The notes below the pieces were generated by a model that searched no databases, was not told the DNA's origin, and was given only the letters and a program-made list of their open reading frames with translations. The position numbers and the translations under genes were made by a program. From an archaeon (GTDB taxonomy: Archaea > Iainarchaeota > Iainarchaeia > Iainarchaeales > 1-14-0-10-31-34), in NCBI GenBank assembly GCA_024277355.1, contig JAJRVL010000009.1, forward strand, positions 1 to 32,000: 32,000 bases of DNA, read 5' to 3'. Positions 23,795-25,920 of this stretch are shown here, piece by piece. How positions within the stretch are numbered: the stretch's first letter is position 1; each line of letters opens with the position of its first letter.

Positions 23795-24607
23795 ATGTTG
23801 CATACAATCAGAACTTTTCCGTTTGAATACTCATTAAATAAAGCTGAAATAACTGTTTTAGGAATTCCTTTTGATTCAACTGAAACAGGAAAATCAGTTA
23901 AATATGGTTCTTTATTTATCCGCGAAGCCATAAAAAATCTTCCAGGATTTGACTTAGAAACAAAAACAAACATTTATGAAAAATTCAAGTTCGCTGATTC
24001 AGGAGATGTAGAAGTTGTTCCAGGAAACTGGAATTTAACTGAAAAAAAAATTAATGAAACAATCAAAGAAATATTTAAAGAAAACCCAAAAATTTTTCCG
24101 ATTTTTTTTGGCGGAGAACACTTAATTTCTTTAGCAGTAATTAATGCTTTAACTGAAATAAAAAAAGAAAAAATAACAGTAATTCATTTTGATGCACACA
24201 GAGATTTAATGCCTGAATTTTTAGGAGAAAAATTTTCACACATAACCTGGGGAAATCATTTACTAAACAATAAAAACATTGAGTTAATTCAGTTAGGAAT
24301 CAGAAGTTCTTCTCCAGAAGAAGAAAAAACAGCAAAAAAATTTAAAATAAAAAATACATTAAAAAACATTAAAGGAAAAGTTTATGTTTCAGTTGATTTA
24401 GATGTATTTGATCCTGTTTTTGCACCTGAAGTCGGCACACCAGAACCTTTTGGAATGAAACAACATGAATTTTTTTCTTTACTAAAAAAAGTCTGCAATA
24501 AAAATCTAATTGGATTAGATTTAGTTGAATGTTCTTCAGATAAAATTAATACTCAAACAGCATTGCTTGCTGCAAATATTTTTAAAAAGGTTTTAGCATG
24601 GAAGTAA
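23795..24607 (+). CDS. speB: Agmatinase / ureohydrolase family protein
   Basis: Mn-binding motifs GGEHLIS, HFDAHRDL and SVDLDVFDPVFAPEVGTPEP. Substrate specificity (agmatine versus a related guanidino compound) cannot be read from the sequence. Confidence 0.8.
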   Translation: MLHTIRTFPFEYSLNKAEITVLGIPFDSTETGKSVKYGSLFIREAIKNLPGFDLETKTNIYEKFKFADSGDVEVVPGNWNLTEKKINETIKEIFKENPKIFPIFFGGEHLISLAVINALTEIKKEKITVIHFDAHRDLMPEFLGEKFSHITWGNHLLNNKNIELIQLGIRSSSPEEEKTAKKFKIKNTLKNIKGKVYVSVDLDVFDPVFAPEVGTPEPFGMKQHEFFSLLKKVCNKNLIGLDLVECSSDKINTQTALLAANIFKKVLAWK

Positions 24608-25920
24608 AATTATCTCACGGAAAAGGAAATCATATTGGATTTGACTGTTTTAATTGCAATAAAAAAGCATTAAATGATGAAAAAAAAGTAAAAGAATTTT
24701 TAATTGAAATTTCTGATGCAATTGAAATGAAAAGACTATGCAAACCTGTTGTAATTTCCCATAAACATGAAAAAAAAACTGAAAGCGGAATAACTGGTTT
24801 TGTTATTATTTCTGAAAGCCATATTTCAATTCACACTTACCCTGAAAAAGGCGAAGCATTTATTGATGTTTTTTCCTGCAAAGAATTTAATGAAACCAAA
24901 GCAAAAAATAAAATACAGGAATTTTTTTCTCCAAAAAAAATTGAAAAACTAATTAATTTCAGAGGAAAAGGAAAATTTAATTTAGAAAAATTATCTATTC
25001 CAATTAAAGGAAAAACTAATGCAAAAACAATTCCTGAATTAATTACAGGAATGGATTCAATTGGATTCCAGGCAAGCCATTTAAGCAAAGCAGGAAAAAT
25101 AATAAAAAAAATGCAGTCAGAAAAAGCAGTAATTTTTTTGTCTTTTACTTCTAACATGGTTTCATCTGGTTTAAGAGAATTATTTGCTTTTATGTTAAAA
25201 CACAAAATGGTTAATGCAGTTATAACTACTGTTGGTTCAATTGAAGAAGACTTAATGAAAACCCATAAACCTTTTTTATTAGGAAGCTTTGAAGCAAATG
25301 ATTTAGATTTACATAAAAAAGGAATTAATCGAATAGGCAATATTTTTGTTCCAACTGAAAGATATAAATGGCTGGAAAAACAATTACAGCCTTTTTTTAA
25401 AGAAATGTATTTTTTACAGAAAAAAAAATCAAGACTGCTTTCTTCCCGTGAAATAATTTTTGAGTTAGGAAAAAAAATTAAAGACGAAAACTCAATTCTT
25501 TTTTGGGCGACAAAAAACAATATTCCAGTTTTTTGTCCTGCAATAACTGACGGTGCATTTGGCTTAAACCTTTATACTTTTAAACAGCAAAACAAAACTT
25601 TTGGAATTGACGTTACAGCAGACATGCAGGAATTAGCTGACTTAGTTTTAACAGCAGAAAAAACTGCATGAATAATTTTAGGAGGAAGTGTTCCAAAACA
25701 CCATTTAATCGGCATAAATATTTTAAGAGACGGATTAGATTATGCAGTTTATGTTTCAACTGCAACAGAAGGAGATGGATCATTATCAGGAGCAAAAGTA
25801 AAAGAAGCAGTTTCATGGGGAAAAATAAATGAAAAATCAGAAAACATTTACATTGAAGGAGATGCAACAATAATTTTTCCTTTATTATTTTATTCAATGA
25901 AAGAAAATTCAGGAAAGTAA
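24598..25920 (+). CDS. Fusion: SpeH-type pyruvoyl-dependent decarboxylase proenzyme (aa 1 to about 120) + deoxyhypusine synthase (aa about 125-440), with an in-frame TGA at 25669-25671
   Basis: N-terminal GFVIISESHISIHTYPEKGEAFIDVFSC carries the AdoMetDC/ArgDC self-cleavage motif E|SH at 24814-24822. DHS motifs are GFQASHL, FLSFTSNMVSSGLRE, VITTVGSIEEDL and GINRIGNIFVP. After the TGA come IILGGSVPKHH, EGDGSLSGA and EAVSWGKI. The start overlaps the agmatinase stop by 10 nt. Confidence 0.75.

Follow-up and report, generated by a model that had tools for sequence, protein, structure and literature searches.

Which substrate does a deoxyhypusine synthase (DHS) use when it is encoded in one frame with a small pyruvoyl decarboxylase and overlaps an agmatinase-family gene, and what does it modify? 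The question is raised by a locus in the first 32,000 nucleotides (nt) of contig JAJRVL010000009.1 (assembly GCA_024277355.1), which derive from an archaeon of the Iainarchaeota; we refer to this whole stretch as the window. The locus comprises a gene for a SpeB-like ureohydrolase, a fusion gene in which a SpeD-fold domain (the N-domain) precedes a DHS domain, and a gene for a membrane protein that we call X (Table 1). We lean toward reading it as a module in which DHS would be fed with agmatine and would modify aIF5A, possibly with G44G, the compound that bacterial SpeY makes from two agmatines, as a side product.

A decarboxylase-synthase fusion and its partners

Searches with hidden Markov models (HMMs) identified an AdoMet_dc domain, matching profile positions 1-102 of 107, followed by a DS domain. 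The preliminary description of this DNA, made from the sequence alone, had proposed an uninterrupted fusion of 440 codons. Both domains are real, but an in-frame TGA at codon 358, to which we return below, ends the open reading frame (ORF) at 357 amino acids (aa). In an AlphaFold2 model of the read-through protein (mean predicted local distance difference test score, pLDDT, 85.7), two confident domains are joined by a low-confidence linker. The self-cleavage motif that had been recognized, VIISE/SHISIHTYPE, is present, with the cut (slash) predicted between Glu73 and Ser74. We aligned the N-domain to the T. maritima and A. aeolicus S-adenosylmethionine decarboxylase (AdoMetDC) structures, and Ser74 (24817-24819), His79 (24832-24834) and Cys94 (24877-24879) fall on Ser63, His68 and Cys83 of the T. 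maritima enzyme. Ser74 is predicted to become the pyruvoyl group. Among 54 fused homologues, Ser and His are kept in all and Cys in 53. As previously suggested, the domain architecture and the modeled linker predict that the pyruvoyl alpha chain would remain tethered to DHS after processing.

The arrangement is not peculiar to this contig. Both PF02675 and PF01916 were found in at least 55 clusters (90% identity) among the best 120 matches from 5.8 billion proteins. These fused homologues are 429-451 aa long and 49-79% identical to the window protein, and those that are named are labeled only "deoxyhypusine synthase"; relatives with an intact fusion ORF measure 434-451 aa. We also surveyed one genome per GTDB species and took the best 80 DHS loci, which are all from DPANN archaea and represent 80 different assemblies; loci from this survey are designated L001, L002 and so on. 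SpeD-like and DHS domains share one ORF in 12 of these 80 species-level loci. When the DHS domains are placed in a neighbor-joining tree, those with and without the fusion intermingle, which points to repeated fusion, fission or loss. The fusion is thus genuine and common in public DPANN data, yet it has gone unremarked. Three loci (L064, L072 and L074) show typical DPANN DHS-X(-SpeD) modules on contigs filed as bacterial (Falkowbacteria, Chloroflexota), and their names probably reflect mis-binning rather than bacterial occurrence.

The fusion gene is translationally coupled to the ureohydrolase gene upstream. Its ATG at 24598 overlaps the ureohydrolase TAA (24605-24607) by 10 nt (ATGGAAGTAA), as the preliminary description had it. 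The same 10-nt overlap is kept in L001 (8001-8010) and L004 (4552-4561), and a ureohydrolase is coupled to the fusion gene in L012 as well as in these two loci. The ureohydrolase scores just above the TIGR01230 cut-off (177.3 against 174.3 bits), its best match in the PDB is the putative agmatinase 3LHL (1e-28), and its translation contains GGEH, DAHRD and SVDLDVFDP, corresponding to the binuclear-Mn pattern GGxH, DAHxD and DxDxxDP. Its substrate may be agmatine, G44G or a guanidinobutyl-lysine on aIF5A, a choice that sequence alone does not decide. Agmatinase homologues associated with SpeY are inactive on agmatine (PMC13625781).

Downstream of the fusion lies X. In every locus first inspected, an X homologue follows DHS, often with a 4-nt overlap. 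Across the survey, 43 of the 80 loci encode X no more than 150 nt from the DHS unit, and 57 encode it no more than 6 kb away. Of the 26 loci with a SpeD-like domain, 24 also have X. X gave no match in Pfam (E up to 10) or NCBIfam. Its AlphaFold2 model (pLDDT 93, predicted template modeling score 0.86) has eight helices, and a Foldseek search of the PDB returned nothing at E<=0.001 (best E=2; template modeling scores up to 0.35). A profile search of 1.84 billion representatives defined a family of 669 members, 368 of them at E<=1e-10.

Fusions also link X to the decarboxylase. In 16 of the best 150 X representatives, X is the N-terminal part of a fusion with a SpeD-like domain, and in one it is fused to a ureohydrolase. 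In the survey, X and a SpeD-like domain share an ORF in 12 of 80 loci, seven of the Micrarchaeota type, (X::SpeD)-DHS, and five of the Iainarchaeum type, DHS-(X::SpeD). Different lineages thus join the decarboxylase either to DHS or to X, a pattern that is classical Rosetta-stone evidence for a joint function of the three proteins. Lys16, Asp19, His76, Glu111, Arg135 and Asp162 are invariant in X, and Lys70, Asp72 and Glu139 nearly so. Since the loops are rich in lysine and a soluble enzyme can be fused at the C-terminus, these polar residues would be expected mostly on the cytoplasmic side. Our guess is that X handles arginine or agmatine, or docks the enzymes at the membrane.

Candidate substrates and acceptor of the module

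One alternative to the agmatine-fed module is the canonical route to spermidine. According to this alternative, the N-domain is a true AdoMetDC that provides decarboxylated AdoMet, agmatine or N1-aminopropylagmatine is the substrate of the agmatinase homologue, and a spermidine synthase encoded elsewhere makes the spermidine that DHS uses. The N-domain does score above the cut-off of the AdoMetDC equivalog model TIGR03330 (84.7 against 75.65), and its closest solved structures are AdoMetDCs. The aminopropylagmatine route is, moreover, known in Thermococcus. Family-level models, however, cannot separate AdoMetDC from its neofunctionalized derivatives, and individual residues argue against AdoMetDC. 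In the window protein, Glu62 takes the place of the FxPxG proline that the Thermotoga and Aquifex enzymes share with bona fide SpeD1 domains. This proline is absent from 50 of the 54 fused homologues, of which 48 have Glu or Asp and four have Pro at this position. Similarly, the N-domain reads FSCK where bona fide AdoMetDCs have TCG. No spermidine synthase was found among the scanned ORFs of at least 80 aa in the window, as had been reported before. Furthermore, fusing AdoMetDC to DHS would have no obvious channeling logic because SpeE must intervene. We consider the spermidine route quite improbable.

Biochemical precedent points in the same direction. Loss of an otherwise invariant proline is the main sequence difference between SpeDA and true AdoMetDC (PMC10407285), and we infer that the FxPxG proline is the "gamma" proline of Fig. 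8 in that work. L-arginine decarboxylase activity, with none on ornithine or lysine, was shown for SpeD homologues whose genes cluster with speB or aguAB and a DHS homologue. The tested set included SpeD homologues from Woesearchaeota and Diapherotrites metagenome-assembled genomes (MAGs) that cluster with speY/dhs, and these DPANN proteins decarboxylated only L-arginine in vitro; other SpeDA candidates that were tested could not replace speD in an E. coli mutant (all PMC10407285). The characterized protein PIN80235 was not recovered among the homologues that we retrieved. In the window, the N-domain is encoded in one gene with DHS and next to speB, and no speE was found among the scanned ORFs of the 32 kb. 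Its nearest stand-alone SpeD homologues (44-49% identity) lie directly upstream of arginase-family genes. An ornithine decarboxylase of the SpeDC type is ruled out by the absence of the diagnostic Gln/Thr/Phe/Tyr residues (window VIISESHISIHTYPE versus VQLIETSLVSGHF of SpeDC domains). Because the proline is lost, the SpeDC residues are missing, stand-alone homologues adjoin arginase-family genes and characterized precedents exist (PMC10407285), we infer that the N-domain is a SpeDA-like arginine decarboxylase rather than a bona fide AdoMetDC.

One woesearchaeotal locus with a SpeDA::DHS fusion and X (L013) encodes another SpeD homologue, unfused, on the other strand 1.2 kb further downstream (5215-5580, minus strand), so that a single genome may contain decarboxylases of two specificities.

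If the N-domain makes agmatine, the DHS domain could act on a protein or on a second agmatine. Bacterial speDA/ADC-speY-speB clusters have an experimentally shown function in which the product is homospermidine and no protein is modified (PMC13625781). A polyamine-only pathway of this kind would run from SpeDA-derived agmatine through SpeY-made N1,N9-bis(guanidino)homospermidine to homospermidine released by the SpeB-like enzyme, with aIF5A modified in some other way. Consistent with it, Li et al. 2023 labeled the archaeal DPANN clusters speY (PMC10407285). In addition, aIF5A was not found among the scanned window ORFs of at least 80 aa and is absent from 77 of the 80 related loci.

The identity of the DHS domain argues against such a pathway. 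Its read-through sequence scores above the cut-off of the archaeal DHS equivalog TIGR00321 (333.9 against 304.25) and far below those of the bacterial SpeY models (150 against 500 for NF002699 and 130 against 450 for NF001980), one of which is now named 1,9-bis(guanidino)-5-aza-nonane synthase. The best PDB match is P. horikoshii DHS (7CMC, 1.4e-92). Both the catalytic lysine, Lys409 in an SWGK motif (25822-25824; human Lys329), and the active-site histidine, His368 (25699-25701; human His288), are encoded, 3' of the TGA. Archaea need DHS for aIF5A and DPANN genomes are very small, and no assembly contributed a second DHS locus to the top 80, which is weak evidence, as a divergent paralogue would be missed.

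A pointer to a protein acceptor comes from two relatives in which aIF5A, with the hypusination loop KSKPGKHGSAK, directly adjoins X. The order is ureohydrolase-SpeDA::DHS-X-aIF5A in L012 and DHS-X-aIF5A-ureohydrolase in L071. By a rough estimate, about 0.16 cases of an immediately adjacent aIF5A would be expected by chance in 80 loci. We regard the polyamine-only pathway as unlikely and propose that aIF5A is the acceptor of the DHS domain. Protein and polyamine outputs are not mutually exclusive.

In the sequence of events that we envisage for the agmatine-fed module, the fusion protein would cleave itself between Glu73 and Ser74, giving a beta chain of 8 kDa, while the pyruvoyl-alpha chain would stay covalently attached to DHS by a short flexible linker. 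The N-domain, acting as a SpeDA-type L-arginine decarboxylase, would then make agmatine beside the DHS tetramer. The NAD-dependent DHS domain, using Lys409, would take agmatine instead of spermidine and most likely transfer its 4-guanidinobutyl group to the conserved lysine of aIF5A, after which the coupled SpeB-like ureohydrolase would remove urea to leave deoxyhypusine. A side or parallel reaction could join two agmatines into bis-guanidino-homospermidine, to be hydrolyzed to homospermidine. Membrane protein X would be part of the same module.

More tentatively, DPANN archaea in general may deoxyhypusinate aIF5A via agmatine instead of spermidine. The machine would have four parts (SpeDA, DHS, the SpeB-like ureohydrolase and X), fused in different pairs, with X as an obligatory partner that might, for example, deliver arginine, retain agmatine or dock the enzymes at the membrane.

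Several observations weigh against an agmatine-fed module that modifies aIF5A. Besides the TIGR03330 score and the homospermidine product of the bacterial clusters, the proline missing from the fusions is only putatively the one meant in PMC10407285. P. horikoshii DHS has the same active-site motifs, and so the DHS sequence gives no pointer of its own to agmatine. Among the 80 DHS loci, only 3 have aIF5A nearby and only 14 have a ureohydrolase within 6 kb. Finally, the gene as written in the window cannot make an active DHS. A chain from arginine through agmatine and DHS to aIF5A, as the preliminary description envisaged, would fit the SpeDA-like N-domain and the in-operon aIF5A of the two related loci, but the copy in the window carries the TGA.

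The in-frame TGA and the genomic surroundings

With translation table 11, the fusion ORF ends at the TGA (24598..25671), and the public gene call is the same 357-aa product. The 82 codons after the TGA stay in frame to a TAA at 25918-25920 and hold His368 and Lys409. The column at codon 358 is Gly, occasionally Ala, in all aligned homologues, and it is GGA in the three closest DNA sequences, so that a single G to T change accounts for the stop. The DHS frame is intact in all close relatives. We think that the TGA is probably either very recent or artefactual, being a minority variant or a mistake made in sequencing or in the consensus.

A fixed nonsense mutation, leaving a pseudogene or a truncated protein with only the decarboxylase, is somewhat unlikely. 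The TGA does stand in the deposited contig and its public gene call, and after the stop the window lineage has somewhat more amino-acid change than its two relatives. Decay may also occur close by. Two short plus-strand ORFs that are not in the same frame (23124-23276 and 23429-23737) are similar to the N-terminal and C-terminal portions, respectively, of a 237-aa methyltransferase-like ORF (27594-28307, plus strand) and look like a degraded paralogue of it inserted between argF and the ureohydrolase gene. This remnant ends 60 nt upstream of the operon, in an interval that is only about 100-120 nt long in L001 and L004, and it shows that local gene decay or assembly noise exists.

In the codons beyond the stop, in contrast, the ratio of nonsynonymous to synonymous substitution rates is 0.16-0.18 against two relatives, similar to the 0.18-0.23 of the DHS part before the stop, and every invariant column of the family alignment is kept. 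A deviation of GGS for GGG (G364S) is no sign of decay, being shared with P. horikoshii DHS. If the TGA is real, the product would be a catalytically dead truncation without Lys409 and His368. Separate translation of the 3' fragment is ruled out, with no in-frame ATG, GTG or TTG start in the 82 codons and no listed ORF. Another MAG among the 80 loci has an isolated in-frame TAG in DHS where relatives have GAG for Glu (L053, 6280-6282), also a G to T change; sporadic stops of this kind therefore occur in such assemblies.

Programmed recoding, whether as selenocysteine, as Gly or Trp, or by read-through, is highly improbable. The aligned Gly is what code 25 would insert. Genome-wide recoding of UGA as Gly or Trp (code 4 or 25) is nevertheless ruled out, as TGA terminates six other ORFs of the window, and ORFs of 886, 614, 604 and 534 aa contain no in-frame TGA. 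Selenocysteine is ruled out by the Gly (GGA) of the relatives, by a 3' spacer of only 7 nt, and by an Rfam scan that found no family at the gathering threshold in or near the fusion gene and no element of the selenocysteine insertion sequence type.

The surroundings are those of a DPANN genome. The G+C content of the window is about 26%, its aminoacyl-tRNA synthetases are of the archaeal type, and the nearest relatives of all genes examined are DPANN archaea (Aenigmatarchaeota, Woesearchaeota and Micrarchaeota MAGs). Earlier placement of argF 0.7 kb upstream agrees with the measured 745 nt to the ureohydrolase gene; the two genes lie on opposite strands and are divergently transcribed. This position of argF is kept in the close relatives L001, L002 and L004. 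The window thus holds argH, argG, the arginyl-tRNA synthetase gene and argF together with a putatively arginine-consuming module inside one 32-kb stretch, and in L006 the arginyl-tRNA synthetase gene lies directly 3' of X. Scans for regulatory signals were uninformative for an archaeon: promoter-like sites found in the operon by a sigma-70 model were fewer than in shuffled sequences, and the terminator scan gave one weak site, within the ureohydrolase gene.

Other features of the window stand apart from the module. A RelA/SpoT homologue of 604 aa (17053-18867, plus strand) with HD_4, RelA_SpoT, TGS and ACT domains is also found at the start of L002; long proteins of this family are unusual in archaea. 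The segment 12152-12339 (plus strand) matches the Rfam tRNA model over 188 nt (46.5 bits), drew no ARAGORN call and is probably an intron-containing archaeal tRNA. In a 290-aa ORF (7693-8565, minus strand), a rubrerythrin-like domain is joined to a membrane domain of the vacuolar iron transporter family (VIT1).

Table 1. Positions of the module and of neighboring genes in the 32-kb window, with X in four related loci
Feature	Position	Strand	Remarks
SpeB-like ureohydrolase (agmatinase family)	23795..24607	+	270 aa; PF00491, 1.1e-53
SpeDA-like pyruvoyl decarboxylase::DHS fusion gene (putative decarboxylase specificity)	24598..25920	+	440 codons if TGA codon 358 is read as sense
N-terminal class-1b AdoMetDC/SpeD-fold domain	24631..24951	+	aa 12-118; PF02675, 2e-26
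Flexible inter-domain linker	24961..24978	+	aa 122-127; AlphaFold2 pLDDT <50, flanking domains ~87-98
DHS domain	25036..25893	+	aa 147-432; PF01916, 5e-107
In-frame TGA, codon 358	25669..25671	+	GGA (Gly) in relatives
Protein X	25928..26461	+	177-aa multi-helix membrane protein; starts 7 nt after the fusion-gene stop
X in L001	9332-9871		
X in L004	5882-6415		
X in L012	2574-3086		
X in L071	2053-2562		
argF, ornithine carbamoyltransferase	22118..23050	-	PF00185 and PF02729; TIGR00658 398, cut-off 281
argG	3016-4236	-	arginine context
argH	1847-3019	-	arginine context
Arginyl-tRNA synthetase (ArgRS)	15360-16964	+	
Archaeal RNase P RNA	21768-22061		
Archaeal 23S rRNA	28443-31436	-	

Related systems and implications

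The gene set to which the fusion belongs is already known. Li, Liang, Phillips and Michael (JBC 2023; PMC10407285) described an unfused speDA-speY/dhs-speB cluster in a Woesearchaeota MAG and characterized its decarboxylase. Li et al. (JBC 2026; PMC13625781) showed that bacterial SpeY couples two agmatines to G44G, which a partner ureohydrolase converts to homospermidine, and asked whether archaea have an agmatine-dependent DHS. Those clusters unite the same three adjacent families as the window, namely a SpeD-derived pyruvoyl decarboxylase, a DHS homologue and an agmatinase homologue. In the window, however, decarboxylase and DHS form one polypeptide and the DHS is of the archaeal rather than the bacterial SpeY type. 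The module also adds X, mentioned in neither paper, and some relatives have aIF5A in the operon.

The closest counterpart in proposed chemistry is the aIF5A-agmatinase-like-DHS cluster of Haloferax volcanii. Prunetti et al. (Archaea 2016; PMC5178350) proposed that DHS moves the agmatine chain to aIF5A and that an essential agmatinase-like enzyme completes the reaction, in an organism with no AdoMetDC/spermidine route. Haloarchaeal clustering of dhs with an agmatinase-like gene, and an agmatine route, had been mentioned in the preliminary description and match this paper. The proposal agrees with our reading of the window module, and we count it in its favor. The two systems differ in that Haloferax encodes a separate, unfused PdaD-type arginine decarboxylase elsewhere (HVO_1958) and the window lacks aIF5A.

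Two further systems share features of the fusion protein itself. The crenarchaeal arginine decarboxylase derived from SpeH (Giles and Graham 2008, cited in PMC10407285) is likewise a pyruvoyl enzyme of the AdoMetDC fold that was neofunctionalized to arginine, but it emerged independently according to PMC10407285, and the DPANN forms fall in another SpeDA clade. The crenarchaeal enzyme is a stand-alone protein without a link to DHS. In the SpeD1-SpeD2 (AdoMetDC-ODC) fusions of Omnitrophota and Desulfobacterales (PMC10407285), a class-1b domain is also part of a larger polypeptide and one chain is tethered after self-cleavage. Their partner is a second SpeD-fold domain, whereas in the window it is DHS, and in fusions of relatives X.

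The preliminary description had also suspected that the fusion was undescribed. In the searchable literature, including PMC10407285 and PMC13625781, we found no description of the SpeDA::DHS fusion, the X::SpeDA fusion, the X family or the use of such a fusion for aIF5A. This novelty has bounds, as the architecture is abundant in DPANN metagenomes and the unfused set has been published with its decarboxylase characterized (PMC10407285). Given the known speDA-dhs/speY-speB and haloarchaeal aIF5A-agmatinase-DHS gene sets, what is new is the covalent fusion, the X::SpeDA fusion and the X family.

How archaea without spermidine modify aIF5A, an essential translation factor, was asked for Haloferax in 2016, and the question returned in 2026 with the finding that bacterial DHS homologues use agmatine. 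That DPANN lineages repeatedly encode an archaeal-type DHS in one polypeptide with a domain of the arginine decarboxylase type, next to a ureohydrolase gene and in some cases to aIF5A, is strong genomic evidence for agmatine as the physiological donor. There are consequences for annotation too, as the fusions carry only the label "deoxyhypusine synthase" and the window copy is called as a truncated protein. The fusion also offers a self-contained construct that would make agmatine-dependent hypusination directly testable in vitro. X represents a family that lacks annotation and comprises several hundred sequence clusters or more. Fused to the decarboxylase time and again, it is a concrete candidate for a missing component.

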